Of a stretch of DNA of 11,631 nucleotides, positions 1-11,631 are shown one piece after another. Position 1 is the first letter of the stretch. The number at the start of each line of letters is the position of its first letter. A program made the position numbers and the translations under genes. Below the pieces are notes generated by a model. The model was not told where the DNA came from and did no database searches. It was given only the letters and a program-made list of their open reading frames with translations. Source of the stretch: Candidatus Auribacterota bacterium (lineage in GTDB: Bacteria; Auribacterota; UBA6266); NCBI GenBank assembly GCA_023136205.1, contig JAGLRQ010000053.1, positions 1 through 11,631 of the forward strand. The letters are read 5' to 3'.

Positions 1-52
1 CATCTGCCTTCTAAGCAGAAAGTCGTTGGTTCGAGTCCAACCGGGCGTGCCA
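1..52 (+). tRNA. tRNA-Arg (anticodon TCT), 3' portion; the 5' part lies off the left edge
   Basis: Anticodon stem tctgc (3-7) pairs with gcaga (15-19). The 7-nt loop cttctaa (8-14) has U33 and A37 in place, giving anticodon TCT (10-12). Variable loop aagtc (20-24). T-arm gttgg/ttcgagt/ccaac (25-41). Acceptor 3' strand cgggcgt, discriminator g, genome-encoded CCA (50-52), then a T6 run. Confidence 0.8.
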
Positions 53-102
53 TTTTTTCTTAGAGCTGTTTTTCCTGCCGGCCTTATTTTAAAAATATTA
101 CT

Positions 103-130
103 TTGACATACGTGAAAAGAGTTTTAAAAT
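103..130 (+). promoter_or_regulatory. Candidate sigma70-type promoter for the glmM-like/glmU-like gene pair
   Basis: TTGACA (103-108), a 16-nt spacer, then TAAAAT (125-130). It lies about 75 nt upstream of the ATG at 207. Sequence match only. Confidence 0.4.
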
Positions 131-206
131 GGAGTTTTCTCCGCATTAGCAGGGGTTATGGCGGAATGAAGGCTGAGGGAAAGAGTTAACGGAAGGGAAA
201 ACAATC

Positions 207-1562
207 ATGAGCAAGCTGATTGTAAGTGTTTCAGGGGTAAGAGGAATAATCGGGGATTCATTAACGCCCGAGGTTGCTTTTCATTTTGGCGCTGCGTTTG
301 GGAGCCTGAACAAGGGAGGTAAAATTGTTCTGGGCAGGGATTCAAGGGTAAGCGGCCCCATGTTAAGTTCAGCTGTTGTTGCGGGGCTTGTTTCTACCGG
401 CTGTAAGGTAGTGGATATAGGCATAACATCAACACCGACGGTTCAAATAATGACCAAAGAGTTAAATGCTGACGGAGGGATTGAAATAACCGCCAGCCAT
501 AATCCGGTTATGTGGAACGGACTCAAATTTATGTCGGCTGATGGGCTTTTTGTAAGCGAAAGAACTGCAGAAAAGATTAAACAGGCTGCCTTGAATAAAG
601 AGTATTCTTTTATGTCCTGGGATAAGCTTGGAAGTATCAGCCGAGATTCATCGGCCGTTAAAACCCATATTCAGAAAGTTCTTTCGCTCCCTTACCTTGA
701 TGTGGATGCTGTGAGAAAAAGGAGGTTTAAAGTAGTTGTTGATACAGTAAATGGAGCCGGGGGCGGCATAATTCCTGAACTTCTTAAGCGGCTCGGGTGT
801 GAAGTAACGGTTTTAAACGAGGAGATGAACGGGCATTTTGCGCATGAGCCTGAGCCTCTTCCTAAAAACCTAAAACAGCTTTCCGATGAAATTGTGAAAA
901 GAGGGGTGGATATAGGTTTTGCAGTAGACCCTGACGTTGACAGATGTGCCATTGTAGATGAAAAAGGGACTCCGATTGGGGAAGAATATACCCTTGTAAT
1001 AGCAGCAAAGCTGGTTCTTTCAAAGAAAAAAGGAAAGGTAACCGTAAATGTTTCAACATCCATGGCAATTGATGATGTTGCCCGGGAGTATGGCTGTCCT
1101 GTGGAAAGAACAAGGGTGGGAGAAATTAATGTGGCACTAAAGATGAAAGATAACAAATCAGTTGTGGGCGGAGAAGGTAATGGCGGGGTGATGATTCCGG
1201 ATATTCATATAGGAAGGGATGCTCCGGTAGCCTGTGCTCTTGCCCTGCAGTATTTACTTGAATCAGGGAAAACACTTTCTGAGATAAAAGAAACTCTTCC
1301 AAAGTATGTGATATTTAAAGGGAAGGTAGATCTTGAAGATAAAGAACCAAAACTTATTCTCGAAGGGTTAAAAAAGCTTATGGCAAAGGAAAAGGTTGAT
1401 GAAACAGACGGCCTTAAAATTATAAGGGATAAATCATGGGTTCATATCAGGGGGTCTAATACTGAGCCTATAGTAAGAATTTATGCAGAGGCGGAAAATC
1501 TTAAAAAAGCCAAAAGGCTGCATGATGAATTTAGAGAAAAAGTTTTGAGGGTTACCAGATAA
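207..1562 (+). CDS. glmM: alpha-D-phosphohexomutase, phosphoglucosamine mutase type (GlmM/PMM-PGM family)
   Basis: 451-aa ORF carrying all four family signatures in order: phosphoserine loop TASHNP, metal loop FAVDPDVDR, sugar loop GGEGNGG, phosphate loop RGSNTEP. The N-terminus SVSGVRG resembles the archaeal/PMM-like subgroup rather than E. coli GlmM (GTDGIRG). The GlmM assignment rests on context: a GlmU-like gene lies 50 nt downstream and glmS is adjacent. SD ggaaggg precedes the ATG. Confidence 0.7.
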   Translation: MSKLIVSVSGVRGIIGDSLTPEVAFHFGAAFGSLNKGGKIVLGRDSRVSGPMLSSAVVAGLVSTGCKVVDIGITSTPTVQIMTKELNADGGIEITASHNPVMWNGLKFMSADGLFVSERTAEKIKQAALNKEYSFMSWDKLGSISRDSSAVKTHIQKVLSLPYLDVDAVRKRRFKVVVDTVNGAGGGIIPELLKRLGCEVTVLNEEMNGHFAHEPEPLPKNLKQLSDEIVKRGVDIGFAVDPDVDRCAIVDEKGTPIGEEYTLVIAAKLVLSKKKGKVTVNVSTSMAIDDVAREYGCPVERTRVGEINVALKMKDNKSVVGGEGNGGVMIPDIHIGRDAPVACALALQYLLESGKTLSEIKETLPKYVIFKGKVDLEDKEPKLILEGLKKLMAKEKVDETDGLKIIRDKSWVHIRGSNTEPIVRIYAEAENLKKAKRLHDEFREKVLRVTR

Positions 1563-1612
1563 AAAATAGGGTTAAAATAGTTATGTGTTACAGGCCTAAT
1601 TAGGAGTTTGAT

Positions 1613-2869
1613 GTGAAAATGATATGTATCTTTGAAGATGGGGGATATGCGGATTTATTACCATTGGTTTATATGCGCCCTGTATATGAGCTTCGCTGCG
1701 GAATAGATCTTCTTAGAGATAAAATAATAAGAAAATACCCTGCCTCGAAAGTAAACCTGTTTTGCCGTGATTACCTTTCTGCAACATTAAAGGAGCGGAC
1801 AACAGACGCTATAAACGAGATAGTTAATGGAAACAAAGGCACTATTTTCATAAACGGGCGTATACTTTTAAACAGGCAAATACCGGTTGAGGGAAAGGAA
1901 GAGGTAGGTATTAAAGGCAAAACGCTTGTATATGCGAGATTGAATAAAGATCACTCGAAATTAATGACCCCTGAGATGTTTCTTGAAGGAAAGGCCCTGG
2001 CAAAGCTTAAGGGTAAAGTTCCATTTGTAAAGGTTGAAGACATTACGGTTTTTAAATACTCGTGGGAGATAATCCATGAGAACGGAAAACAGATATGTAA
2101 AGACTTTGATGACCTGGCAGAAGGCGGAAAAATAAAGGGCAAGCTCTACGATGGTGTTCATATACTTGATAAAAAGAATTTATTTATAGATGAAGGTTCT
2201 ATTGTTAAGCCTGGAGTTGTGTTGGATGCGAGTGAGGGCTCTATATATATAGGCAAAGGGGTAAAGGTATTTCCTAATGCGGTGATAGAAGGTCCCGCGT
2301 ATATAGGGGATAATAGCACGGTAAAAATAGGGGCAAAGATATATAGAGGAACGAGTGTGGGAGAGGTTTGCAAGGTAGGAGGAGAGGTTGAGGAGAGCAT
2401 ATTTCATTCTTATTCGAACAAACAGCATGAAGGATTTCTTGGACATGCATATATCGGCCAGTGGTGCAACATTGCAGCGGACACAAATGACAGCGATTTG
2501 AAAAATAATTACAGTACTGTCAGGGTCTATGTTAATGGTAAATATGTTGACACAGGGGAAGTGTTTGTGGGGCTGACAATGGGAGATCATTCCAAAACCG
2601 GGATTAACTCGATGTTTAATACCGGTACGGTTATTGGTTTGAATGTTAATATTTTTGGAGCTCAGCTTCCTCCAAAATTCGTTCCTTCATTCTGCTGGGG
2701 GGCTAGCGGTGTATTTGTTGTTTATCAGCCCGATAAAGCAATAAAGGTTGCCGAGAGAGTTATGGCAAGAAGAAAAATCAAATTAACAAAAGCTCAAAAA
2801 GATCTTTTTATGTTTCTTTATAAAATGACCGAAAGTGAGCGAGACTTGAACCGGATTATTCAACTGTAA
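1613..2869 (+). CDS. GlmU-like sugar-phosphate nucleotidyl/acetyl-transferase with a left-handed beta-helix ('alternative bacterial GlmU'-type)
   Basis: 418-aa ORF. The C-terminal half is rich in hexapeptide [LIV]-G-x4 repeats (IYIGKGVKVFPNAVIEGPAYIGDNSTVKIGAKIYRGTSVGEVCKVGGEV...). The N-terminal ~190 aa resemble a nucleotidyltransferase fold but lack the canonical GxGTR(M/L) loop (IFEDGGYADLLPL instead). GTG start at 1613 lies 6 nt after AGGAG (1602-1606); ATG at 1619 is an alternative. The gene sits between the mutase and glmS. Confidence 0.6.
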   Translation: MKMICIFEDGGYADLLPLVYMRPVYELRCGIDLLRDKIIRKYPASKVNLFCRDYLSATLKERTTDAINEIVNGNKGTIFINGRILLNRQIPVEGKEEVGIKGKTLVYARLNKDHSKLMTPEMFLEGKALAKLKGKVPFVKVEDITVFKYSWEIIHENGKQICKDFDDLAEGGKIKGKLYDGVHILDKKNLFIDEGSIVKPGVVLDASEGSIYIGKGVKVFPNAVIEGPAYIGDNSTVKIGAKIYRGTSVGEVCKVGGEVEESIFHSYSNKQHEGFLGHAYIGQWCNIAADTNDSDLKNNYSTVRVYVNGKYVDTGEVFVGLTMGDHSKTGINSMFNTGTVIGLNVNIFGAQLPPKFVPSFCWGASGVFVVYQPDKAIKVAERVMARRKIKLTKAQKDLFMFLYKMTESERDLNRIIQL

Positions 2870-4682
2870 CACTTTTTGCCAGGTTCCTCGGCTGATCGAT
2901 ATTACATCCTCTCTTTACCGCTATGAAATAAGCGAGCAGCTGAAGAGGTATTACCGTTAAAAAAGGGTTTAAAACATCAATTGTTTTCGGTATATATATT
3001 GTATGATCGGCTAATTTTTTAATCTTTTTATCGCCTTTATTTGCTACGGCGATAACTTTTCCGTTTCGTGCTTTTATTTCTTCAATATTAGAAAGTATCT
3101 TGTCATAAACATTATCGCTTGTCGCAATAACAACAATGGGCATGTCTTTATCTATAAGAGCAATAGGCCCGTGCTTCATTTCTGCCGCCGGGTATCCTTC
3201 AGCGTGGATGTAAGATATTTCTTTAAGTTTCAATGCTCCTTCTAAGGCTGTTGGGAAATTATATCCCCTTCCCAGATAGAGAAAATTGTTTTTGTTAGAG
3301 TAGAGGTTTGCAATTTTTTTAAAGCTATTTTCTTCTTTTAAAATAGCTTTAATTTTGGATGGTATGGTTTTTAACTCTTTTAAAATAGATTTAGCCCTCT
3401 TTTTTGAGGTATTGCGCATACGGCCGAGGTGAAGCGCAAGTAAAAGCAAAACCGTTACCTGGGAAGTGAATGCCTTGGTTGACGCTACGCCGATTTCAGG
3501 CCCCGCATGAAGGTATATACCCCCATGTGATTCCCTGGAGATAGATGATCCAACTGCATTACAAATACCCATAATTGTTGCATTTTTTGTTTTTGCTTCA
3601 TGGATAGCGGCCAGAGTATCTGCGGTTTCTCCGGATTGGCTGATTGCAATTACAAGTGTTTGTTTATTTAATATGGGGTTGCGGTATCTAAATTCAGAGG
3701 CATATTCGACTTCAACGGGTATTCTTGCTATGTCTTCTATCATGTATTCGCCGATAAGTCCCGCGTGCCATGAGGTACCGCATGCGGTAATAACAATTTT
3801 TTCTATATCCTTCAATTTGTCTTCAAAAACAAGGAGTCCGCCGAGTTTGGATGTTGAATGTTTCTCATCGATTCTACCTCTCATGGAGTTAGTTATTGAT
3901 TCAGGCTGTTCATGTATTTCTTTGAGCATAAAATGTTCAAAGCCGCCTTTTTCAATCATATCTATATTCCATGAGACCTCTTCGATTTTTTTTGTTACCG
4001 ATTTATTATGGATTGTTTTTATATCAAAAGAATTTCTTCTCATGACGACCATTTCATCGTTTTCTAGATGAATTATTTTTTTTGTGTGCCTTAATGTCGC
4101 GGCGATGTCTGATGCCACAAACATTTCGTTTTTGCCGACGGCAACTATAAGGGGGCTTCCTTTTTTTGCGGCAACAATTTCATTGGGGTTTTTACAGCAT
4201 ATTACAGCAATGCCATAGGTTCCTTCTATGAGCTTTAACGCTGATCTGACCGCGTCTGAAAGATTACCTTTGTAATATTGTGATATAAGGTGGGCAAGCA
4301 CTTCGGTGTCTGTATCGCTCAAGAACCTAACGCCTTTTTTAAAAAGCTTTTTTCTAAGGTAATCATAATTTTCAATTATGCCGTTGTGCGCTACGGCTAT
4401 TTCCCGGGATTGGTCAAAGTGAGGGTGTGTGTTTTTGAGGAGCGGGGCTCCGTGTGTTGCCCACCTGGTATGTGCAATTCCAATATGCCCGGGTAAACTC
4501 TTTTTTTTGAGTTTTTTTTCGAGCTTTGATATATTTCCTACAGATTTAGTACATGATATGTGATTGTCATTAATGGTAGCTATGCCTGAAGAATCGTAAC
4601 CCCTGTACTCAAGGCGCTTTAGTCCGCTAAGTAATATTTCCTTAGCGTTTCGCTTTCCGATATATCCGATTATTCCGCACAT
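2856..4682 (-). CDS. glmS: glutamine--fructose-6-phosphate aminotransferase (isomerizing)
   Basis: 608-aa ORF starting MCGIIGY, the Ntn Cys nucleophile. It has a class-II glutaminase domain, two SIS domains (GTSWHAG..., SQSGETADT) and the characteristic C-terminus ...LAKSVTVE. Confidence 0.95.
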   Translation of the reverse strand: MCGIIGYIGKRNAKEILLSGLKRLEYRGYDSSGIATINDNHISCTKSVGNISKLEKKLKKKSLPGHIGIAHTRWATHGAPLLKNTHPHFDQSREIAVAHNGIIENYDYLRKKLFKKGVRFLSDTDTEVLAHLISQYYKGNLSDAVRSALKLIEGTYGIAVICCKNPNEIVAAKKGSPLIVAVGKNEMFVASDIAATLRHTKKIIHLENDEMVVMRRNSFDIKTIHNKSVTKKIEEVSWNIDMIEKGGFEHFMLKEIHEQPESITNSMRGRIDEKHSTSKLGGLLVFEDKLKDIEKIVITACGTSWHAGLIGEYMIEDIARIPVEVEYASEFRYRNPILNKQTLVIAISQSGETADTLAAIHEAKTKNATIMGICNAVGSSISRESHGGIYLHAGPEIGVASTKAFTSQVTVLLLLALHLGRMRNTSKKRAKSILKELKTIPSKIKAILKEENSFKKIANLYSNKNNFLYLGRGYNFPTALEGALKLKEISYIHAEGYPAAEMKHGPIALIDKDMPIVVIATSDNVYDKILSNIEEIKARNGKVIAVANKGDKKIKKLADHTIYIPKTIDVLNPFLTVIPLQLLAYFIAVKRGCNIDQPRNLAKSVTVE

Positions 4683-4757
4683 AGTTATAAATTAGTAGAT
4701 AGGGTTAAACAAAAGAAGATTATTGCCATATAATTGAAATATTGTAAAGCATAATTT

Positions 4758-6260
4758 TTAGCATATTTTGATATTATACTCCTTAACTTTCCTATCCAGC
4801 CTGTTTCTGGAAATTCCGAGAAGTTTGGCTGCTTTACTTTTGTTGCCGGTTGTATATTGAACAGCTTTTTCTATATGGTTTTTTTCAGCAGATTTTAGCA
4901 TCCAATCAGTTGTTATCGGCGTGCGTTTCGTCCTTATTTCAGCAGGAAGATCTTCTGCTTTGAGAATTTTACCTGTTCCCAAGACCATGGCTCTCTCAAC
5001 CGTATTCTTAAGCTCTCTGATATTTCCATGCCAGTTGTATGAAAGAAGAATATCCATTGCCCTGGGTTCAATTGACGTTATTACTTTTCCCATAGATTTT
5101 GTCTGTTCTTCAATAAGGTGTGTAAGCAGGTCGGGGATATCTTCCTTATGTTCTCTTAATGGAGGCATGTAAAGTTCTATTACCTTTACCCTGTAATACA
5201 GGTCTTCCCTGAAGCGTCCTTCTTCAATTGCTTTCTCGAGGTTTTCATTGGTAGCCGCAATTATGCGGGCCTCGGATTTTATGGTTTCCGTTCCGCCTAC
5301 CCTTTCAAATTCTTTTTCCTGCAAAACCCTTAAAAGTTTTACCTGGATATGGGGTGATAGCGTTCCGATTTCATCCAGGAAAATAGTTCCTTTTGCGCAA
5401 AGCTCGAATCGTCCTATTTTTCTGGCAACAGCTCCTGTAAAAGCGCCTTTTTCATGTCCAAAGAGTTCGCTTTCAAGCAATGTTTCCGGTAGAGCTGAGC
5501 AATTGATACATATGAAGGGATGATGTTTCCTCGGGCTTTTTATGTGGATCATCCTTGCTGCGAGTTCTTTGCCGGTACCGCTTTCACCTCGAATCAGTAT
5601 GGTAGAATCAGTCCCCGCGACGGTATTTATTAGTTCATGAACGGCCTTCATTTTATTGCCGGATCCTATCATTTTTGTTGATTGGGGTATTTGGGTTTTC
5701 AGGTTTTTGACTTCTATCCCCATTTCGTTATGAAGTCGGGCATTTTCAATGGCGATAGCTGCCTGGTTTGTAAATGCGACCAGCAAAGAAAGGTCTTTAT
5801 CATCGAAATTGCCGGATTTGTTATTGATAACTTCGATTACTCCAATTATTTTCCCCCTTATTTTTATGGGGGCGCAGATAATCGAACGTGTCGGGTAATT
5901 TAGTTTCTTACTTATATCTCCGAACCATCGTTTATCTTCCTGGACATTATTGGAGATGGTGGGTTTCCCTTCATTTATTACCCATCCTGCAATCCCCTGT
6001 CCCGCCTTTATCTTAAAATTCTTTATCTCGTTTGCCTTTTTACCGGTAACTGTTTTAAATGCAAGGTAATTAGCGTTTTTTTCAATCAATATTATAGAAC
6101 TTGCTTCAGAATTTAAAACATCACTTGCCGTTTTCAGTACTCGTTCCAGGACTTCTGTGATGTCCAGAGTCGAATTGATGATCTGATTTATTTCAAAAAG
6201 TTTTAGAAGGTTTGTTTTTCCGATATCTTTAAAAAGTTCAGTAGTTTCTTTAGTTTCCAT
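4758..6260 (-). CDS. sigma54-dependent transcriptional activator (bEBP) with GAF sensor, AAA+ domain and Fis-type HTH
   Basis: The N-terminal ~170 aa are GAF-like (ILIEKNANYLAF..., GIAGWVINEGKP..., IGVIEVINN). The central AAA+ domain has Walker A GESGTGKE, the sigma54-contact loop GAFTGA, Walker B IFLDEIG and the R-finger region. The C-terminus carries the HTH GNKSKAAKLLGISRNRLDRKVKEY. There is no receiver domain. The track starts at a TTG (6266). I prefer the ATG at 6260, which lies 8 nt after an AAGGA SD on the - strand. Confidence 0.9.
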   Translation of the reverse strand: METKETTELFKDIGKTNLLKLFEINQIINSTLDITEVLERVLKTASDVLNSEASSIILIEKNANYLAFKTVTGKKANEIKNFKIKAGQGIAGWVINEGKPTISNNVQEDKRWFGDISKKLNYPTRSIICAPIKIRGKIIGVIEVINNKSGNFDDKDLSLLVAFTNQAAIAIENARLHNEMGIEVKNLKTQIPQSTKMIGSGNKMKAVHELINTVAGTDSTILIRGESGTGKELAARMIHIKSPRKHHPFICINCSALPETLLESELFGHEKGAFTGAVARKIGRFELCAKGTIFLDEIGTLSPHIQVKLLRVLQEKEFERVGGTETIKSEARIIAATNENLEKAIEEGRFREDLYYRVKVIELYMPPLREHKEDIPDLLTHLIEEQTKSMGKVITSIEPRAMDILLSYNWHGNIRELKNTVERAMVLGTGKILKAEDLPAEIRTKRTPITTDWMLKSAEKNHIEKAVQYTTGNKSKAAKLLGISRNRLDRKVKEYNIKIC

Positions 6261-6298
6261 TGTCAATTTCCTTTTTCAATATGTTTCATTATATGACA

Positions 6299-6315
6299 TG
6301 CTTCATTTTGAAGCA
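6299..6315. promoter_or_regulatory. 17-bp perfect palindrome TGCTTCA-N3-TGAAGCA; candidate bEBP operator/UAS
   Basis: tgcttca (6299-6305) and tgaagca (6309-6315) are exact reverse complements. The site lies ~40-55 nt upstream of the bEBP start and ~190 nt upstream of the -24/-12 element. Its format resembles NtrC-family sites. No binding data. Confidence 0.3.
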
Positions 6316-6368
6316 ATGTTTTATAACTATCTATTTCATAAGGGGTTATATAATATATTCTATCTGGC

Positions 6369-6386
6369 GTTGCTCCAAAATGCAAC
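6369..6386. promoter_or_regulatory. Inverted repeat GTTGC-N8-GCAAC; second candidate UAS
   Basis: gttgc (6369-6373) and gcaac (6382-6386) are reverse complements. The centre lies ~120 bp upstream of the -24 element, a typical enhancer distance for sigma54 promoters. Confidence 0.25.
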
Positions 6387-6497
6387 CATTGTTTTTATTG
6401 TTGTAATATATGAAGGGGCTTTTGTTTGATACTTAAAAAGTTCTCTATTTTTTTTATCGACGGTATAGTGTATTTTTTAAGTATATGAGGGATTAAA

Positions 6498-6513
6498 TGG
6501 CATGGCTTTTGCT
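6498..6513 (+). promoter_or_regulatory. sigma54 (-24/-12) promoter
   Basis: TGGCATGGCTTTTGCT matches the consensus TGGCAC-N5-TTGCW with a single C-to-T deviation and exact GG-N10-GC spacing. The predicted start is ~20 nt before the ATG at 6544, with SD AAGGAGG (6531-6537) in between. The sigma54 activator gene is divergent from it. Confidence 0.7.
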
Positions 6514-6543
6514 CTGTTATAAACTGGGCAAAGGAGGTGCAAG

Positions 6544-6942
6544 ATGAAAAAGCTAATTTTAATGTTGGTTGCAGTATCAATGGCAACAGGAGTTATTACA
6601 ACTGCTTCGGCAGGAGAGAAAGAATGGGCTACAGCAGGCAAAATACTTGCAGGAGTTACAGCGTATCAGTTTTTGAGCGGGAACTTACTCCCACAGCAGA
6701 GAGCATATTATGGTTACTCATATTATGCGCCAAGACGTTTAAGACATTATTATCAAACACCAAGGCATTATTCACCAAGAAGGTACCGTTCCTCAAACAC
6801 GTATTATGTTCCTTATTCACCAAGAAGGCACCGTTCTTCAAACACGTATTATGTTCCTTCATACACAACGTATACAACTACATATGCTGCTAACTATTCT
6901 GAGCCTGTTGTAATTGTAGAAGAAAACAATCGTTGGTGGTAA
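6544..6942 (+). CDS. secreted Tyr/Arg/Pro-rich tandem-repeat protein, unknown family
   Basis: Strong SD. Sec signal MKKLILMLVAVSMATGVITTASA|GE. By my count the ~109-aa mature part contains 19 Tyr and 12 Arg. It carries reiterated [AST]PRR motifs and two near-identical 15-aa units, SPRRYRSSNTYYVPY and SPRRHRSSNTYYVPS. The tail is TTYTTTYAANYSEPVVIVEENNRWW. I recognise no family. Confidence 0.7.
   Translation: MKKLILMLVAVSMATGVITTASAGEKEWATAGKILAGVTAYQFLSGNLLPQQRAYYGYSYYAPRRLRHYYQTPRHYSPRRYRSSNTYYVPYSPRRHRSSNTYYVPSYTTYTTTYAANYSEPVVIVEENNRWW
6771..6860 (+). repeat. 2 x 45-bp in-frame tandem repeat
   Basis: 6771-6815 and 6816-6860 differ at 3 of 45 positions. They encode the 15-aa units above. 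More degenerate PRR-containing units lie just upstream (about 6730-6770). Confidence 0.9.
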
Positions 6943-6946
6943 TTTT

Positions 6947-7444
6947 ATGAAAAAGCTTATAATTACATTAGTCCTGGGTGCCGCTTTTTGCGGCACCTGC
7001 CTCTTCCCTGAAGATGTTCTGGGAGACGAAAAATTATTCTCATCGAATTGCGTTATAGTTGAGGGAGGGAAGATAAGAGTTGTTGGTACGGGGAAGCCTC
7101 CGGTATCTTCGTATTATGGGAAATCTCAAAAGAGGCTTATGGCTCGCCGGGCGGCGATCATTGACGCTTATAGGAATCTTGCCCGAACCCTTGCTGGTTT
7201 TTCAGGTAGGGCTATAAAGTCTGGCAACATAAAATCAAATGGATATATAGTTGACGCGAGATGCGTAGAAACAAGATATTACAAAGACGGAACGGTTCAG
7301 ATTATTCTGGAAATGCCTGGAATTAGTAAAAAAAGAGTTTGCAAAAGAGAGGGCATAAAGGTTTATAATGATGAATTGGTTTCAATCGATAGAAAAACTT
7401 TTGCAGTAAGTGAACAGGAATGGTTAGGAATGAAACCCAAGTAG
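6947..7444 (+). CDS. exported FlgP/LPP20-like protein, single module
   Basis: The start lies 4 nt after the previous stop. Signal-like N-terminus MKKLIITLVLGAAFCGTC. The lead-in strand IRVVGTGKPP is followed by KRLMARRAAIIDAYRNLARTLAG. This matches the helix signature (RLMA-RAA-lDAYR-LAE) I recall from Vibrio FlgP and the LPP20 lipoprotein family. Confidence 0.6.
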   Translation: MKKLIITLVLGAAFCGTCLFPEDVLGDEKLFSSNCVIVEGGKIRVVGTGKPPVSSYYGKSQKRLMARRAAIIDAYRNLARTLAGFSGRAIKSGNIKSNGYIVDARCVETRYYKDGTVQIILEMPGISKKRVCKREGIKVYNDELVSIDRKTFAVSEQEWLGMKPK

Positions 7445-7531
7445 GGTCATGGGTCAAGGGTGAGGAGAAATTTGTATTCCCCAGAACCTAAAACCCACAA
7501 CCAATGACCCATGGTAAGGAAGGAGGATGAA

Positions 7532-8836
7532 ATGTTAAGGAAATTAGGAGTACTGGTTTTGATGGCGAGTTTGAGTATGCCTCTGGTTTGTATGCCGGTT
7601 TATGCTACAGCCAAAGGTCAGCAGAAGCTTATGGCGGAAAGAGCGGCGAAGGTTGATGCCTATAGAAATCTTGCTGAAAGGGTGAAAGGGCTTAGAATAG
7701 ACGCTAACACCTATGTCAGGGATTTTGTCGCGGAAAGCGACCAGATTAATACATCATTTGATCATTTTATAAAAGGCGCTGCCATTGTTCCGGGAAGCGA
7801 TAGATGGGATGGTGAAGTTTACACTTTAAGAGCCAGGCTTACGTTAGAACAGGTAGTTAAATTTATTAAAACATACTACAAGAAAACAAGGTTTCTTTTT
7901 TGGACGCATACAAAAATTCAGCAGATAGAGACTTACAATAAGGAGTATAAGGTGATAGAGGTTGAAGGTTCGGGGACGATCAGAACCGCTGATCCTTCTG
8001 AGAATTTACAGACTAAACCTGCTAGGATTACCGATGGGATACCCGGCTGGGAAGGAGTTACAGCTCGTGGCAGGTTGATGGCTGAAAGAGCTGCAAAGGT
8101 TGATGCGTATAGAAATCTTGCTGAAAAGGTTAAAGGAGTAAGAATCACTTCAAGTACTTATGTCAGAGACTTTGTGGCGGAGAATGATCAGATAAATACT
8201 GCACTGGACACGTATATAAAAGGCATTCGTTTGTCAGGCCCGTACAGATATTTGCCTGACGGAATAGCTGAATGTGATGTTGAAGTAACTATAGTGGATG
8301 TAATAAAAGAAGTTCATGAAATATGGAAACGGTTTGAAAGAAGAGGCTATAGATTTAGAAAAGTAAGGTGGAAGAAAGTAAGGTGGGAAGAGGTTGTAAC
8401 TCAGCAGAATATTCGCGTGATAAGAGCGACTGGTTCCGGTGTTCCTCCGGAGAAATATATAGAAAAGGGGCCTGTGTCTCAGGCCCCTTCCCAGGCTGTT
8501 TCTGCGCCTTCCTGGGCTTCTCAGGCTGTGTCAGCCAAAGGTTATGGGGTTCCGAGGGAAGGTGAGGCCGGAACCGTTGCAAAGCTTAATGCGGGTAGGG
8601 CGGCTGAGGTAGACGCAAGAAGAAATCTTGCTGAGATTATTTATGGAGTAAAAATTGACGCGAATACAACTGTCAGGGATTTTGCTGTTCAAAATGACCA
8701 GGTGAATGCGAAAGTCAAAACTTTTATGGCAGGTGCTAAAGTAAGCGATCCTCTTTTTCTTGAGGATGGAAGCGTTGAGGTAACAGTTTCGATTTTATTG
8801 CGGGGTTTATGGGATTCCATAAAAAAAAGCAGGTAA
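7532..8836 (+). CDS. exported protein with three tandem FlgP/LPP20-like modules
   Basis: I prefer the ATG at 7532, 5 nt after AGGAGG (7521-7526), over the track start at 7511. Signal MLRKLGVLVLMASLSMPLVCMPVYA|TA. The three modules begin LMAERAAKVDAYRNLAERVKGLRIDANTYVRDFVAESDQINT, LMAERAAKVDAYRNLAEKVKGVRITSSTYVRDFVAENDQINT and LNAGRAAEVDARRNLAEIIYGVKIDANTTVRDFAVQNDQVNA. A basic RKVRWKKVRW repeat and an SQA-rich linker lie between modules 2 and 3. Confidence 0.65.
   Translation: MLRKLGVLVLMASLSMPLVCMPVYATAKGQQKLMAERAAKVDAYRNLAERVKGLRIDANTYVRDFVAESDQINTSFDHFIKGAAIVPGSDRWDGEVYTLRARLTLEQVVKFIKTYYKKTRFLFWTHTKIQQIETYNKEYKVIEVEGSGTIRTADPSENLQTKPARITDGIPGWEGVTARGRLMAERAAKVDAYRNLAEKVKGVRITSSTYVRDFVAENDQINTALDTYIKGIRLSGPYRYLPDGIAECDVEVTIVDVIKEVHEIWKRFERRGYRFRKVRWKKVRWEEVVTQQNIRVIRATGSGVPPEKYIEKGPVSQAPSQAVSAPSWASQAVSAKGYGVPREGEAGTVAKLNAGRAAEVDARRNLAEIIYGVKIDANTTVRDFAVQNDQVNAKVKTFMAGAKVSDPLFLEDGSVEVTVSILLRGLWDSIKKSR
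7631..8200 (+). repeat. Intragenic duplication (modules 1 and 2 of the triple-module gene)
   Basis: Hand alignment of 7631-7753 with 8078-8200 gives 94/123 identical nucleotides and 36/42 identical residues. A third, more diverged copy starts near 8585. A separate 15-bp tandem (aaagtaaggtgg at 8360-8371 and 8375-8386) encodes KVRW-KKVRW. Confidence 0.8.
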
Positions 8837-8892
8837 AATAAATTGATGTCTTTGGCTGGTAAATACAATTGGTTTAGAAAGAGAGGGATCCA

Positions 8893-9018
8893 ATGAAAAA
8901 GGCTGTAATTTTAATAGTTTTGTTTTCTGTCATTTCAATTGTAATTGTGGGATGTACCGAAAAGTATGTTGTTACCGAAAGGACCGTGGTTGAAACAAGA
9001 GAAGTTGTTGTAGAATAG
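8893..9018 (+). CDS. 41-aa lipoprotein, below the ORF-track length cut-off
   Basis: My own translation: MKKAVILIVLFSVISIVIVGCTEKYVVTERTVVETREVVVE*. SD GAGGG (8883-8887) lies 5 nt before the ATG. It has a textbook n/h-region and lipobox IVG|C. The stop is 11 nt before the next gene's ATG, whose SD GGGGAGG overlaps that stop. The 21-aa mature peptide is an alternating Val/Thr/Glu/Arg beta-strand-like sequence. Confidence 0.6.
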   Translation: MKKAVILIVLFSVISIVIVGCTEKYVVTERTVVETREVVVE

Positions 9019-9029
9019 GGGAGGTTGAA

Positions 9030-10163
9030 ATGAAACGGTTAATATTATTATTTTTCGTTTGTATATTTGTAACAACTTGCGTTTTTGCTCAGATGGAAAC
9101 TACTATAGTGGCGAAGGGCATGGCTGCCGTAAGGGGGGTCGGCCCGGATGCTGTTCTCAGCGCGAGAGATGAGGCGATTAACCGTGCTTTAAGGAATGCT
9201 GTGGAACAAGCGGTGGGCAGCCTTATTGATTCTGAAACTATGGTCCAGAATTTTCAGCTGCTGGATGACCAGGTTTATTCAGAGGTAAAAGGATATGTAA
9301 AGAGTTATGAGATTGTAGATGATAATAATGGTGAAGGGGGGATTTATCAAACAAGGGTTAAAGCTGTTGTTTTACTGGGTACCCTAAGAAAGAACCTTAA
9401 AGCTTTTAATATAGTCAAGGAAAAGCTTAACAAACCCAGAATCATGATTGTTTTTTCTGAGACCGTAGATGGCCTTGAGCAACCCGGACAAACGGTTCAA
9501 ACCGGAATGGAAAAGAGTTTTTTGAACAACGATTTTAAACTGATAGATAAAGCTCAAATGGAAGCCGTGAAATTACGGGATGCTGCTGTTTACTATGAAA
9601 ATCCTACAGAAGCAGTTGCTCTTGGCAGGAGGTTCGGAGCTGAGGTTATTGTAGTTGGACAGGTCTCTTCCGATTTAGTTGATTCCAGCTGGCCGTATGG
9701 CGTTTGTGTCTTTGCCTATGAAGCGCAGGCCACCGCAAAAGCTATTGATGTTGATTCTGCCCAGGTTATAGTTTCAGACGGTGCCAGTGCCCAGGCAAGG
9801 GCCGGAGGAAGAGTCCCTTCGGCGCGCAAAGCAGCCAAGGAAGCAGGCGTGAAGCTGGCAGGGAAAATGATGGACCAAATAGTTGAAAACTGGAGAACCA
9901 AAGTTTACAATACAATGGATATTCAGATTGTCGGCTTTAATGCTGACGCCGATAACCGCCTTGCTTTTGAGAAGGCACTTGAGCAGGTCAGGGGCGTAAG
10001 AAGTGTAAACGAAAGAAGTTTTTCAAGGGATGTAGTGATTATAGATGTAACAATTGACGGGGCATTGTATAAAGGTTTTGAAGAGATAATAAATACCCTT
10101 CCTGATGTTGATGTAAAAATTAAGGGAAAAACTCAAAACAGGATAGATTTAGATTTTTTATAA
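9030..10163 (+). CDS. exported FlgT-like multidomain protein: LPP20/FlgT_N-like head, TolB-N/CsgG-like alpha/beta domain and a C-terminal domain
   Basis: Signal MKRLILLFFVCIFVTTCVFA|QM. The N-domain reads IVAKGMAAVRGVGPDAVLSARDEAINRALRNAVEQAVGSLIDSETMVQNF...YQTRVKAVV, which fits the pattern x-G-x-A...AR-xA-xxAL-xxA-xQ-xG I associate with FlgT_N/LPP20. The middle region (PRIMIVFSE...FKLIDKAQ...GAEVIVVGQV) resembles the CsgG/LpoB/TolB-N type fold. The family call is by eye only. Confidence 0.45.
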   Translation: MKRLILLFFVCIFVTTCVFAQMETTIVAKGMAAVRGVGPDAVLSARDEAINRALRNAVEQAVGSLIDSETMVQNFQLLDDQVYSEVKGYVKSYEIVDDNNGEGGIYQTRVKAVVLLGTLRKNLKAFNIVKEKLNKPRIMIVFSETVDGLEQPGQTVQTGMEKSFLNNDFKLIDKAQMEAVKLRDAAVYYENPTEAVALGRRFGAEVIVVGQVSSDLVDSSWPYGVCVFAYEAQATAKAIDVDSAQVIVSDGASAQARAGGRVPSARKAAKEAGVKLAGKMMDQIVENWRTKVYNTMDIQIVGFNADADNRLAFEKALEQVRGVRSVNERSFSRDVVIIDVTIDGALYKGFEEIINTLPDVDVKIKGKTQNRIDLDFL

Positions 10164-10242
10164 GATTGTAACACTTTTACATTGAGTGGTGTATTATCTG
10201 TATATAATTTGTGGTGTGCTAAGAACTTACAGGGGTATTAAG

Positions 10243-11298
10243 ATGCTTTTTATGAAAAGATGGTTTTTTATAGTGGGCATGTCTTTTTTGATTATTGCTG
10301 TTGTCGGCCTTGATGGTACTGCTGCCGCGAGGAGAAGAACATCTTACGATAGAAAAGAAAGGCCGGCCCGAAAAAAGAAGAAAAAGAAAGTTGTCCAGCA
10401 GATGGTGCTTCCTCCTATTGTTGGGCCGAGAAAGACTATAGCGGTTGCCGATTTCGAGAACAAGGCAGGTGCTCAAGCGCGGTGGAATCTCGGAAACGGT
10501 ATGGCAGAAATGCTTACCACTTCCCTGGTAAACACGAACAGATTTATTGTTGTTGAACGCCAGAATATCCGGGGTATTATTCAGGAACAGGATTTTTCTG
10601 TAAGCGGCAGAACAATTAATGTCGGGGCCCCTGAGATAGGGCGCCTTTTAAATGCTCAGATTCTTGTAAGCGGAGCCATAACAGAATTTTCACAGCGTTT
10701 TTTTGATTCTGGAAGCCTTTTTCAATATAAAGGTGTTTCTCTGGGGGTGAAATCAGCCACTGCTCATGTAGCCCTTAATATAAGGATGTATGATACTACT
10801 GCCGGTGAAGTAATTGCCTCTAAGCGTGTTGAAGGCAAGGGGAATGTTTCCGGCCTTAGTATCGGCTATTCTGAAAGTGATTGGGGGGTTGATTTTGATA
10901 ACTTTAAAGCATCTCCACTTGGTAAGGTAACTCAACAAGCGATTGACGAAGCGGTCTATTATATCTGTTTGGAGATGCAGAAGGTTTCATGGCAGGGTAC
11001 TGTTGTTACTATCAAAGGCGGTAAAATATATCTTAATTGCGGCGCGAATTCCAATGTTAAAGCCGGTGATGAATTTGAGGTTTACAGAAAGGGCGAGGAG
11101 CTTATTGATCCTGATTCAGGGCTGTCTCTTGGTTTTGAGACAAAAAAAATAGGATTGGTTAAGGTTTTCGAAGTTGAAGATAAGTTTTCGCTTGCAGATT
11201 CTGTTTCGGGCGGAAAATTTGAGAGGGGAGATATAATTAAATTTATTCCACCACCACCGGTTCCATTGCCCGAGGAGGGTACAGTAATATCTCAATAG
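10243..11298 (+). CDS. CsgG-family outer-membrane channel-like protein with a polybasic N-terminal linker and an extra C-terminal domain
   Basis: It aligns by eye to E. coli CsgG block by block: KTIAVADFENKAG...GNGMAEMLTTSLVNTNRFIVVERQNIRGIIQEQ matches KIFVSVYNIQDETGQ...ATAMLVTALKDSRWFIPLERQGLQNLLNER, ILVSGAITEF matches IMVEGSIIGY, and HVALNIRMYDTTAGEVIAS matches QIAVNLRVVNVSTGEILSS. I prefer the ATG at 10243, 7 nt after AGGGG, to the GTG at 10186. There is no Cys after the hydrophobic segment, so it is not a canonical lipoprotein. A RRR...RKKKKKK tract spans 10324-10389. The C-terminal ~100 aa (GKIYLNCGANSNVKAGDEFEVYRKGEELIDPDSG...GDIIKF) end in PPPPVPLPEE. Confidence 0.75.
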   Translation: MLFMKRWFFIVGMSFLIIAVVGLDGTAAARRRTSYDRKERPARKKKKKKVVQQMVLPPIVGPRKTIAVADFENKAGAQARWNLGNGMAEMLTTSLVNTNRFIVVERQNIRGIIQEQDFSVSGRTINVGAPEIGRLLNAQILVSGAITEFSQRFFDSGSLFQYKGVSLGVKSATAHVALNIRMYDTTAGEVIASKRVEGKGNVSGLSIGYSESDWGVDFDNFKASPLGKVTQQAIDEAVYYICLEMQKVSWQGTVVTIKGGKIYLNCGANSNVKAGDEFEVYRKGEELIDPDSGLSLGFETKKIGLVKVFEVEDKFSLADSVSGGKFERGDIIKFIPPPPVPLPEEGTVISQ

Positions 11299-11301
11299 GG
11301 A

Positions 11302-11383
11302 AAATCACAAATTCCAAATCCAAAGTTACAATGACCGAAACACTTGTTCCTATTTGTGATTTGTTGTTTGTAAATTGTGATTT
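11302..11383. repeat. Three copies of an 11-nt motif (one inverted, two direct) between the two CsgG-like genes
   Basis: aaatcacaaat (11302-11312) is the exact reverse complement of atttgtgattt (11352-11362). A third copy, aattgtgattt (11373-11383), has one mismatch and ends 7 nt before the SD GGAGG (11391-11395). Confidence 0.6.
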
Positions 11384-11401
11384 CTAAAGGGGAGGGTTTT
11401 T

Positions 11402-11631
11402 ATGAAAGGGTTTTTATCATGTATATTTGTTTGGGTTTTTGTTCTTTTGGTTTCTTATGCCGGTGCCGGCATAAAAAAAACCATAGCAGTTTCTGATTTC
11501 GAAAACAAAGCGGGGTTCAGTTCCGAATGGAATCTTGGCAGCGGCATGGCAGAAATGGTTACCACTTCCCTTACCAATTCGGGTAGTTTTATTGTCGTGG
11601 AAAGGCAGAATATTCAGGGTATCCTTCAGGA
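11402..11631 (+). CDS. second CsgG-family paralogue, 5' partial; continues past the right edge
   Basis: Absent from the ORF track because no stop is reached. SD GGAGG lies 6 nt upstream. My translation: MKGFLSCIFVWVFVLLVSYAGAGIKKTIAVSDFENKAGFSSEWNLGSGMAEMVTTSLTNSGSFIVVERQNIQGILQ. It is collinear with residues ~65-130 of the preceding gene but lacks the polybasic linker. Confidence 0.75.
   Translation, partial: MKGFLSCIFVWVFVLLVSYAGAGIKKTIAVSDFENKAGFSSEWNLGSGMAEMVTTSLTNSGSFIVVERQNIQGILQ

Follow-up and report, generated by a model that had tools for sequence, protein, structure and literature searches.

Contig JAGLRQ010000053.1 of a Candidatus Auribacterota bacterium (assembly GCA_023136205.1) carries, in the 11,631-nucleotide stretch analysed here (its positions 1 to 11,631, ‘the window’), an operon for envelope proteins that is preceded by a –24/–12 promoter of the sigma-54 (RpoN) type and diverges from the gene for a sigma-54 activator, or bacterial enhancer-binding protein (bEBP), with a GAF sensory domain. 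Judged from its position, strand and conservation, which lift the match far above chance, the promoter is real, and the comparison of related loci supports the divergent activator as the best candidate for the protein that acts on it. The signal to which the activator might respond is a separate and more tentative matter, for which the sequence points towards a cyclic nucleotide.

The sequence features, their conservation, the linkage of the genes and the domain and fold similarities were observed, and they can be brought together in a single explanation, which is considered likely as a whole, its cyclic-nucleotide input included. The 283 bases at 6261–6543 would act as a two-way control region. 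To the right, the sigma-54 promoter would drive an operon of seven genes whose envelope products are secreted proteins and lipoproteins, with sigma-54 RNA polymerase waiting as a silent closed complex until the activator remodels it in an ATP-dependent opening step; to the left, a sigma-70-type promoter (6288–6316) would drive the activator gene. Dimers of the activator would bind two 17-bp dyads (dyad A, 6299–6315; dyad B, 6370–6386) lying 120–190 bp upstream of the –24 element, would then form a ring and would reach the polymerase by looping the intervening A/T-rich DNA, and activator bound at dyad A would also restrain its own gene through an overlap with the –35 hexamer. The GAF domain is proposed to gate the ATPase, with a cyclic nucleotide as the likeliest type of ligand and cAMP as the probable one, made by a class III cyclase with a CHASE2 domain that is encoded a few kilobases past the operon and would relay an extracytoplasmic cue.

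The sigma-54 promoter of the envelope operon

The promoter element, TGGCATGGCTTTTGCT, is composed of TGGCAT (6498–6503), GGCTT (6504–6508) and TTGCT (6509–6513) on the plus strand, and differs from the extended consensus TGGCAC-N5-TTGCW at one position only (C to T at the sixth). The –24 GG (6499–6500) and the –12 GC (6511–6512) are separated by exactly 10 bases, in agreement with the spacing given in an initial annotation made from the sequence alone, which had also placed a Shine-Dalgarno sequence and an ATG about 30 nt downstream; these are found as AAGGAGGTG at 6531–6539 and as the start codon of operon gene 1 (6544), 31 nt past the element. From the usual spacing, transcription of the operon is predicted to start near 6523–6524. 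A scan of the plus strand of 6261–6543 gave no sigma-70-like promoter at its threshold.

Taken by itself, the match in the window is not significant: no second site on either strand comes within one mismatch of the extended consensus, but 0.34 such matches are expected per window by chance and at least one was present in 61 of 200 shuffled sequences. With up to two mismatches, eight matches were observed and 4.8 expected. Three other plus-strand matches, at 6636, 8068 and 11536, were read as chance because they have two mismatches, lie within genes and are conserved only in the near-identical locus L013.

The weight of the argument falls on related loci, which were gathered from three sources: an exact look-up of activator orthologues (50–71% identity; L004–L009, L026–L029 and L110), a scan of species-representative genomes with the 377-aa protein of the operon (L010–L025), and a metagenome scan with the GAF domain (L030–L109). 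The window DNA is also found within a 96-kb metagenome scaffold (ENA ERZ23498405) and the metagenome-assembled genome (MAG) GCA_030639325.1, and the closest named relatives of the window's proteins are from MAGs of Candidatus Auribacterota (= Aureabacteria). The –24/–12 element precedes the first operon gene in nine of the 11 lineages with readable upstream DNA (window/L013, L004, L005, L007, L009, L016, L021, L027 and L029). At a rate of ~1.5e-5 per position and strand for at most one mismatch, ~0.002 matches are expected per 150-nt upstream region, so the recurrence of the element in separate lineages cannot be put down to chance. When the intergenic region of the window is aligned with those of L004 and L005, which have activators 69–71% identical to that of the window, most of the DNA proves to have diverged; GGCATG-N2-TTTTGC keeps both its sequence and its register, as do the Shine-Dalgarno sequence and the start codon. 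Elsewhere the element reads TGGCATGGCTTTTGCT in L013, TGGCACAGAACCTGCT in L007, TGGCACGCAAATTGCG in L016 (Ca. Tritonobacter lacicola), TGGCACGCTACTTGCG in L021, TGGCATGGTAGTTGCT before the operon of L027 and TGGCATCTTTTTTGCT in L029, and it is kept although the proteins of the operon, and the activator, share just ~45–55% identity between these lineages. The tenth lineage, L017, has a weaker match only (TGGAATACCAATTGCA). Two distant Syntrophaceae-type loci have AGGCCYGNTTTTTGCA in common, ~170–180 nt upstream of the first gene, which is only suggestive.

Three findings weigh against the promoter being used as described. In L009 (Ca. Theseobacter exili) the element is TGGCACGCAAATTGAT, with TTGAT at –12, so that GA replaces GC; in L020, a MAG labelled Omnitrophota, the operon is present without a –24/–12 element; and no RpoN box turned up when all fetched loci (345 kb; no search of the source genome was made) were translated in six frames and scanned with a regular expression. 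The Ace Lake paper that reports Auribacterota MAGs makes no mention of sigma factors (PMC9324843). Indirect support for an rpoN gene in the genome comes from the intact activator and the conserved promoter. The L020 operon, together with the presence of a one-mismatch site in about a third of shuffled windows, would fit a chance match in A/T-rich DNA and transcription of the operon by the housekeeping sigma-70 polymerase. This reading is given hardly any credence, against it being the same position of the element in nine of 11 lineages despite diverged flanks, the lack of any plus-strand sigma-70-like site found in the intergenic region and the presence of a sigma-54 activator gene next door.

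Some further features of the upstream DNA were seen. The promoter-proximal DNA seems partly duplicated, in that TATTGTTGTAATATATGAAGG (6396–6416) resembles TATTTTTTAAGTATATGAGGG (6471–6491), and GGCTTTTG is present twice, at 6417–6424 and 6504–6511, the upstream copy being without a –24 element. Between dyad B and the promoter lies a 20-nt inverted repeat (6429–6448 / 6465–6484, 85% complementary), which is retained in the near-identical L013 and not in L004 or L005. In L020 the operon begins with the LPP20-repeat gene, 88 nt after lepA-lepB (1801–1888), and is preceded by a terminator-like hairpin and repeated GATTACACAGA units.

The activator and its gene

The product of the gene at 4758–6260 is, on the evidence of its sequence, a sigma-54 activator of GAF/AAA+/helix-turn-helix (HTH) architecture, with all the defining domains and motifs present, and it is identical to the database protein P0001. 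The initial annotation had described a bEBP on the opposite strand with an intact GAFTGA motif, Walker A and B motifs and an HTH, and with a GAF domain in place of a phospho-receiver, and this description holds throughout: Pfam gave GAF_2 (E = 7e-23), Sigma54_activat (3e-70), AAA_lid_14 (2e-25) and HTH_8 (4e-12) and no receiver domain, the Walker A motif GESGTGKE is encoded at 5565–5588 and the Walker B motif IFLDEI at 5367–5384, and the GAFTGA loop comprises residues 272–277 (5430–5447). The open reading frame (ORF) tool placed the start at a TTG (6266) two codons upstream of the ATG (6260) adopted here.

The sensor had also been compared with NifA, FhlA and NorR, which turned out to be poor models for it. 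No curated equivalog model for these families reached its cut-off with the whole activator, the scores being 407.6 against 528.85 for NifA (TIGR01817), 325.4 against 476 for NorR and 297.1 against 830 for FhlA, and GAF domains that bind cyclic nucleotides score higher with its sensory domain than NifA does. The flagellar bEBP models FlgR (279 bits against 750) and FlbD (300 against 750) fell far short of theirs, and the N-terminal domain is a GAF, not a receiver or a FleQ domain. As every score lies under its curated cut-off, membership in the NifA, NorR, FhlA, FlgR and FlbD families was rejected.

The minus strand offers a plausible promoter of sigma-70 type ahead of the activator gene, comprising TTGCTT (6316..6311), a spacer of 17 nt and TATAAT (6293..6288), followed by the Shine-Dalgarno sequence AAGGAA (6273..6268). 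The arrangement TTGCTY-N17-(T/C)ATAAT is retained in L004, L005 and L013. The candidate was missed by the sigma-70 scan because its –35 hexamer fits at three of six positions only.

Candidate enhancer dyads in the intergenic region

Dyads A and B share the half-site TGCTYC and each span 17 bp; dyad A is a perfect dyad, and the centre of dyad B lies 121 bp upstream of the –24 GG. The two forms were searched for in 345 kb of non-redundant fetched DNA, of which the intergenic regions in question make up ~1%. For the dyad B form (TGCTYCANNNYGCAAC, at most one mismatch), eight of nine matches fell in an activator-upstream intergenic region, against a shuffle mean of 1.1; for the dyad A form (TGCTYCNNNNNGRAGCA), six of nine unique sites were in these intergenic regions, and shuffled sequences gave ~2.6 sites anywhere. 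In L005, L009, L027 and L029, and twice in L007, the 17-bp dyad A form precedes the sigma-54 promoter, and the dyad B form also adjoins the activator gene in the operon-less L006, L026 and L028, where the motif abuts a TTGACA –35 hexamer. In L027, where the activator gene is 3 kb off, the motif accompanies the promoter, as GTGCTCCATTTTGTGGCA ~85 bp upstream of –24, and in L016 a related pair of half-sites (GAAGCAATC...GATTGCTTC, 21 nt apart) lies upstream of the promoter. Across loci, the distance from dyad to –24 is about 60–190 bp, which fits enhancer-like sites. Dyads A and B are thus probably enhancer sites, and we infer that the protein binding them would be the activator. A site for IHF between the dyads and the promoter was looked for by eye, and no convincing match to the remembered consensus was seen, only A/T tracts.

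Two observations weigh against this reading of the dyads. The spacing of dyads A and B differs by 3 bp, so the two may be non-equivalent sites, and dyad A could owe some of its conservation to the activator gene's own promoter, whose –35 hexamer it overlaps. It is this overlap that suggests self-repression, and within the window's own clade the activator probably limits its own synthesis.

The dyads might instead be RNA hairpins, that is terminators or leader structures, and not protein-binding DNA; a terminator scan does report 6299–6315, with a T-rich run after it, and 6369–6386. There is no plus-strand gene end upstream of the dyads, and the changes in the arms are non-compensatory (TGCTCT...GAAGCA in L005, TGTTCC...AGAGCA in L004), which is why the dyads are read as protein-binding and the hairpin explanation was rejected as extremely improbable. 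What is conserved is the half-site sequence and not the pairing, and in L016 the half-sites stand 21 nt apart.

Linkage of the activator to the operon and to amino-sugar genes

Among 12 lineages with an activator orthologue, seven have the operon divergent from or near the activator gene. The two are divergent in six of these (window/L013, L004, L005, L007, L009 and L029), and in L027 the operon is 3 kb from the activator gene, with htrA and a DUF4416 gene between them. In an approximate neighbour-joining tree, the four ligA-type loci that lack the operon group together in a single clade, and L110 pairs with L027 as its sister; because the adjacent state is spread over deep branches, the adjacency looks ancestral, with roughly two separations, as far as so rough a tree suggests. 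The metagenome scan with the GAF domain recovered no Auribacterota orthologues and no envelope operon, and so contributes nothing to this count. It is the adjacency in seven of 12 lineages, together with a dyad motif that accompanies both the activator gene and the promoter, that supports the divergent GAF-type activator as the cognate one.

The linkage has exceptions, and these count against an exclusive partnership. In five lineages (L006, L008, L026, L028 and L110) no operon was found within 8–10 kb of the activator, and in L016 and L021 the promoter is present with no activator gene within 7 kb upstream. In L027, a second good –24/–12 match, TGGCACACAAAATGCT (11601–11616, plus strand), lies 125 nt past the activator stop codon and 33 nt before a gene for a 991-aa beta-helix protein, which is followed by a gene for a 1606-aa RHS/YD-repeat protein; these genes are possibly an additional target of the activator in that lineage. 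The initial annotation had spoken of a dedicated switch, and of this the switch stands, in the form of a conserved promoter and a divergent activator, and ‘dedicated’ is not supported, since the adjacency is strong evidence yet not universal. The same exceptions could be taken to mean that the promoter is real and that a different bEBP activates the operon, or that the neighbour is not its sole activator and has other targets. Such an arrangement is considered unlikely, given that divergent adjacency has been retained in lineages across deep branches of the tree and that one dyad motif adjoins the activator gene and also precedes the promoter of the operon, even in L027, where gene and promoter are 3 kb apart.

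The most persistent neighbour of the activator gene is glmS, often with nagA, which lies no more than 4 kb away in 10 of the 12 lineages; in L004, L005 and the window it comes next after the activator gene, on the same strand. It could therefore be proposed that the real partners of the activator are the amino-sugar genes glmS and nagA and that it controls the synthesis of cell-wall precursors, in the way that sigma-54 acts indirectly, via GlmY, in enterobacteria. Glucosamine-6-phosphate synthase has known links to sigma-54 (PMC3162934). This proposal was rejected and is held to be very unlikely: no –24/–12 element (up to two mismatches, GG...GC core) was found upstream of glmS, nagA or the leaders of their operons in any locus, glmS is in some loci on the strand of the activator gene and in others convergent with it, there is a sigma-70-like site in the gap of 75 nt ahead of glmS, and L027, L029 and L110 have no glmS nearby. 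The proximity of glmS is read instead as inherited gene order; it still fits a general link of sigma-54 with genes for cell-surface precursors (PMC3162934). In L004, a weak –24/–12-like sequence with two mismatches, AGGCAGCTTCTTTGCT (10950–10935, minus strand), was noted 31 nt upstream of the glmU-like NTP_transf_4 gene; neither the window nor L005 showed a counterpart there.

The sensory domain and its candidate signal

By sequence and by modelled fold, the GAF domain of the activator is closest to GAF domains that bind cyclic nucleotides. The best relatives of solved structure were Lcd1 (5w10, E = 4e-21), PDE5 (2e-19) and CyaB2 (2e-15), with PDE2A and PDE10A also found, against 4e-8 for Nlh1, the GAF domain of a bEBP. 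An AlphaFold model of the domain, built from 40 aligned sequences, reached a mean pLDDT of 91.4; in the fold search, first place went to the entry ‘Lcd1 GAF domain in complex with cAMP ligand’ (E = 1e-14, TM 0.83, 30% identity), followed by an HD-GYP GAF, PDE5, PDE2, PDE6, PDE10 and CyaB2, with Nlh2 in 23rd place. The domain alone gave 44 bits with the curated NifA model, 19 with FhlA and no match with NorR; cyclic-nucleotide-binding GAFs gave 60–79 bits, the two sets of scores being obtained by different methods. The signature motif of such GAFs is NKFDE; its N, K, F and D are present in NNKSGNFDDKD (encoded at 5793–5825) and likewise in the segment NNKSGNFDDKDL, where L stands for E. Lcd1, which binds cAMP, also has D-L at this point of the motif; its reference carries in its title the description ‘a cAMP-dependent diguanylate cyclase’ (PMC11800159).

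A possible source of the nucleotide is encoded in the neighbourhood. A gene for a class III cyclase with a CHASE2 domain is present in L009, L012, L013, L014 and L001, in the last of which the window ends at position 12602 and the cyclase gene (15245–17245) thus lies outside it. The order in L001 (13120–18533) past operon gene 7 is DUF3307 and a 441-aa FecR/LPP20 gene on the opposite strand, and then the cyclase gene, whose end overlaps a gene for a GAF-SpoIIE (PP2C) phosphatase; the GAF domain of this phosphatase is 43% identical to that of the activator over 166 residues (E = 1e-42). In the cyclase of the window's lineage, FDKYVGD carries the Lys and FYDYTVIGD the Asp that together make up the adenylate-type pair of class III enzymes. 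The cyclase/GAF-PP2C pair was also seen in the metagenome locus L033. In L026, whose lineage has no operon beside the activator, a CHASE2-GGDEF protein, of the type that synthesizes c-di-GMP (1753–3477, minus strand), and a PilZ protein are encoded 6–9 kb from the activator, the former being another CHASE2 sensor near a member of the activator family.

A second arrangement was found in seven metagenome loci of other lineages (L044, L045, L046, L053, L067, L072 and L075), in which rpsA (ribosomal protein S1), a GAF-bEBP gene, a gene for a TPR protein of ~240 aa and a gene for a CHASE2 cyclase of ~805 aa follow one another on the same strand (e.g. L075 113–6518). The activators of this module are 41–43% identical to that of the window and 51–88% identical among themselves; they have a GAFTDA or GAFTNA loop and retain the C-terminal HTH. 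The change of G to D in GAFTGA is known in the functional FlgR (PMC3162934). That these GAFTDA-loop relatives in other phyla stand in a row with TPR and CHASE2 cyclase genes suggests a widespread signalling module that has gone undescribed; no description of the rpsA/GAF-bEBP/TPR/CHASE2 module turned up in literature searches on these terms, nor was any found that links CHASE2, GAF and sigma-54.

As the GAF domain is nearest to cyclic-nucleotide GAFs and CHASE2 cyclases lie near the activator family in two arrangements, cAMP is the leading candidate for the signal. On this similarity and gene linkage, cAMP from the CHASE2 cyclase is the most likely single signal, and it is put forward only tentatively; both the ligand and the direction in which it would act, on or off, are inferred. 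If it is right, the CHASE2 cyclase would sense an extracytoplasmic cue, cAMP would bind the GAF domain and the promoter of the LPP20/CsgG-like envelope machine would open, giving a sigma-54 activator gated by a cyclic nucleotide and possibly the first example of one; this fuller scheme is regarded as somewhat doubtful. The same cAMP would also reach the GAF-PP2C phosphatase encoded beside the cyclase.

The switch might also be built as described with a GAF domain that senses something other than a cyclic nucleotide: a partner protein, a signal from redox state or a metal, or a metabolite (e.g. 2-oxoglutarate). The cyclase nearby would in that case have nothing to do with the activator. GAF domains bind many ligands (PMC3162934), and those of PtsP and methionine-sulfoxide reductase are also among the fold matches. 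Three findings count directly against a cyclic nucleotide: the NifA GAF still aligns at 44 bits, the NKFDE motif is incomplete, and the CHASE2 cyclase is not in the sequenced neighbourhood of L021 and L027. This alternative is a serious contender, falling only a little short of probable. It leaves to be accounted for that cyclic-nucleotide-binding GAFs come first by sequence and fold with NorR absent and FhlA at 19 bits, that CHASE2 cyclases are linked to the activator family in two unrelated arrangements, and that a phosphatase GAF 43% identical to that of the activator is encoded by a gene overlapping that of the cyclase.

Genes of the operon and other features of the window

The coordinates of the features are collected in Table 1. 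The protein of operon gene 1 is rich in Tyr, Arg, Ser and Pro, contains a tandem YSPRR(Y/H)RSSNTYYVP repeat and had no match in Pfam or NCBIfam; homologues are encoded at the same position in L004, L005 and L013, and even in L004 and L005 they are ~50% identical, against 67–75% for the other operon proteins there. Gene 2 has homologues in L004, L005, L007, L009, L013 and L016. The start of gene 3 is placed at 7532 by gene callers; its repeats belong to LPP20, the family that contains FlgP. Between this gene and that for the 377-aa protein lies the small gene 4, with a signal ending in ...IVGC, which is called as a gene in L001, L002, L003 and L005 (41 aa in L005) and is 45 aa long in L009. The gene 5 protein matched a model of Leptospira LipL46 weakly (NF033164, E = 5e-11, 41.9 bits against a cut-off of 400), and its homologues extend to Thermodesulfobacteriota and Syntrophaceae MAGs at 33–34% identity. 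Gene 6 gave FlgT_C and FlgT_M matches of 25.8 and 24.4 bits, both under their cut-offs, and gene 7, cut by the end of the window, is complete (297 aa) in L002 and L003. Among the amino-sugar genes beside the switch, the 3′ ends of the glmU-like gene and glmS overlap by 14 nt.

Table 1. Features of the window, with coordinates, strand and the basis of each assignment
Feature	Position	Strand	Basis
tRNA gene, 3′ part, cut by window start	1–49	+	Rfam RF00005, 37.9 bits, model positions 24–71
glmM-like phosphoglucosamine mutase gene	207–1562	+	
glmU-like NTP_transf_4/hexapeptide protein gene	1613–2869	+	
glmS	2856–4682	–	
Sigma-54 activator (bEBP) gene, 500 aa, ATG at 6260	4758–6260	–	ORF; Pfam
C-terminal Fis-type HTH (HTH_8), DNA-binding domain	4776–4892	–	PF02954, 46.2 bits (cut-off 22)
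Sigma-54 interaction AAA+ domain	5172–5672	–	PF00158, 235.6 bits (cut-off 20.2)
GAF sensory domain, residues 32–172, cyclic-nucleotide-binding type	5745–6167	–	Pfam, solved relatives, modelled fold
Candidate sigma-70-type promoter of activator gene	6288–6316	–	Read from sequence
Dyad A, TGCTTC-ATTTT-GAAGCA, candidate activator-binding site	6299–6315	.	Conserved block in alignment of window, L004 and L005
Dyad B, TTGCTCCAAAATGCAAC, second candidate activator-binding site	6370–6386	.	Conserved in L004, L005 and L013
Sigma-54 promoter (–24/–12), TGGCAT-GGCTT-TTGCT	6498–6513	+	Sequence and conservation across loci
Shine-Dalgarno sequence and ATG of operon gene 1	6531–6546	+	Invariant in alignment of window, L004 and L005
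Operon gene 1, 132-aa secreted protein, Tyr/Arg-rich repeats, no family match	6544–6942	+	ORF
Operon gene 2, 165-aa secreted protein, no family match	6947–7444	+	ORF
Operon gene 3, three LPP20 (FlgP-family) repeats	7511–8836	+	PF02169, 67.2 bits, three matched stretches
Operon gene 4, 41-aa lipoprotein-like small ORF	8893–9018	+	Called as gene in relatives
Operon gene 5, 377-aa secreted protein, no Pfam match	9030–10163	+	ORF
Operon gene 6, CsgG-family protein with FlgT_C-like tail	10186–11298	+	PF03783, 117.6 bits
Operon gene 7, second CsgG-family protein, cut by window end	11402–11631	+	Frame translation

Comparison with known systems

The pairing of a divergent GAF-type activator with a sigma-54 promoter is known from textbooks. 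That sigma-54 controls the cell exterior is an established theme too (PMC3162934), so the confirmed part of the present findings is an example from a little-studied candidate phylum and not a new principle; what is new is the suggested signal only, the overall design being familiar. The analysis provides a testable regulatory map, made up of a promoter, two candidate enhancers and a predicted transcription start, for an uncharacterised FlgP/FlgT/CsgG-related envelope family in bacteria without flagella, and this map may help to show when and why the envelope structure is made. If the cAMP signal is true, it would tie transcription by sigma-54 to signalling through cyclic nucleotides and mark out a module that several phyla possess.

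The structural genes recall those of the Vibrio H-ring (flgO, flgP and flgT), since there too envelope proteins of the LPP20/FlgP family and of FlgT/CsgG-like type are made from sigma-54 promoters through a bEBP, FlgOT and FlgP being products of class III genes under FlrC and sigma-54 (PMC6504787). FlrC, a response regulator that is phosphorylated, belongs to a flagellar hierarchy, whereas the activator described here has a GAF sensor. In none of the loci were flagellar genes found within 10 kb. Flagella are also reported to be lacking in the Auribacterota MAGs from Ace Lake, among them the sources of the operon-bearing L009 and L016 (PMC9324843). Because these operon-bearing relatives lack flagella, the flagellar echo remarked on in the initial annotation survives as a parallel from the literature, and a functional link to flagella was rejected.

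Among curated families, NifA gives the best match (TIGR01817), aligned from the GAF domain through the AAA+ domain, and it shares with the present activator a GAF-gated architecture and enhancer-like dyads ~100–200 bp upstream of a –24/–12 promoter. It differs in that the score lies below the cut-off, there are no nif genes nearby, the GAF domain is nearer to cyclic-nucleotide GAFs and the NifA site, TGT-N10-ACA, is unlike the dyads found here. The arrangement of the genes is like that of NorR and norVW of Escherichia coli, in which a GAF/AAA+/HTH activator is divergent from its target operon, has several dyads in the shared intergenic region and limits its own synthesis, although in the window the dyads are candidates and self-limitation is an expectation from their position. 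NorR senses nitric oxide through iron, binds GT-N7-AC and controls a detoxification enzyme, in contrast to the motif TGCTYC-N5-GRAGCA and the envelope proteins described here, and neither the whole activator, at 325 bits, nor its GAF domain matches the NorR model adequately.

The dyads themselves resemble the sites of NtrC, TGCACC-N5-GGTGCA, in being 17 bp long with outer TGC...GCA 11 bp apart, in suiting a dimer of a Fis-type HTH and in that a sigma-54 promoter is usually preceded by at least two of them; the inner part of the half-site differs (TGCACC in NtrC, TGCTYC here), and NtrC is switched by phosphorylation of a receiver, which the present activator does not have. For the sensor, the closest solved GAF domain is that of Lcd1 from Leptospira interrogans (PDB 5W10), which was solved with cAMP bound and, like the GAF domain of the activator, has D-L where other cyclic-nucleotide-binding GAFs have D-E. 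The two proteins part company in their output, which in Lcd1 is a GGDEF cyclase and in the activator described here a sigma-54 AAA+ ATPase.

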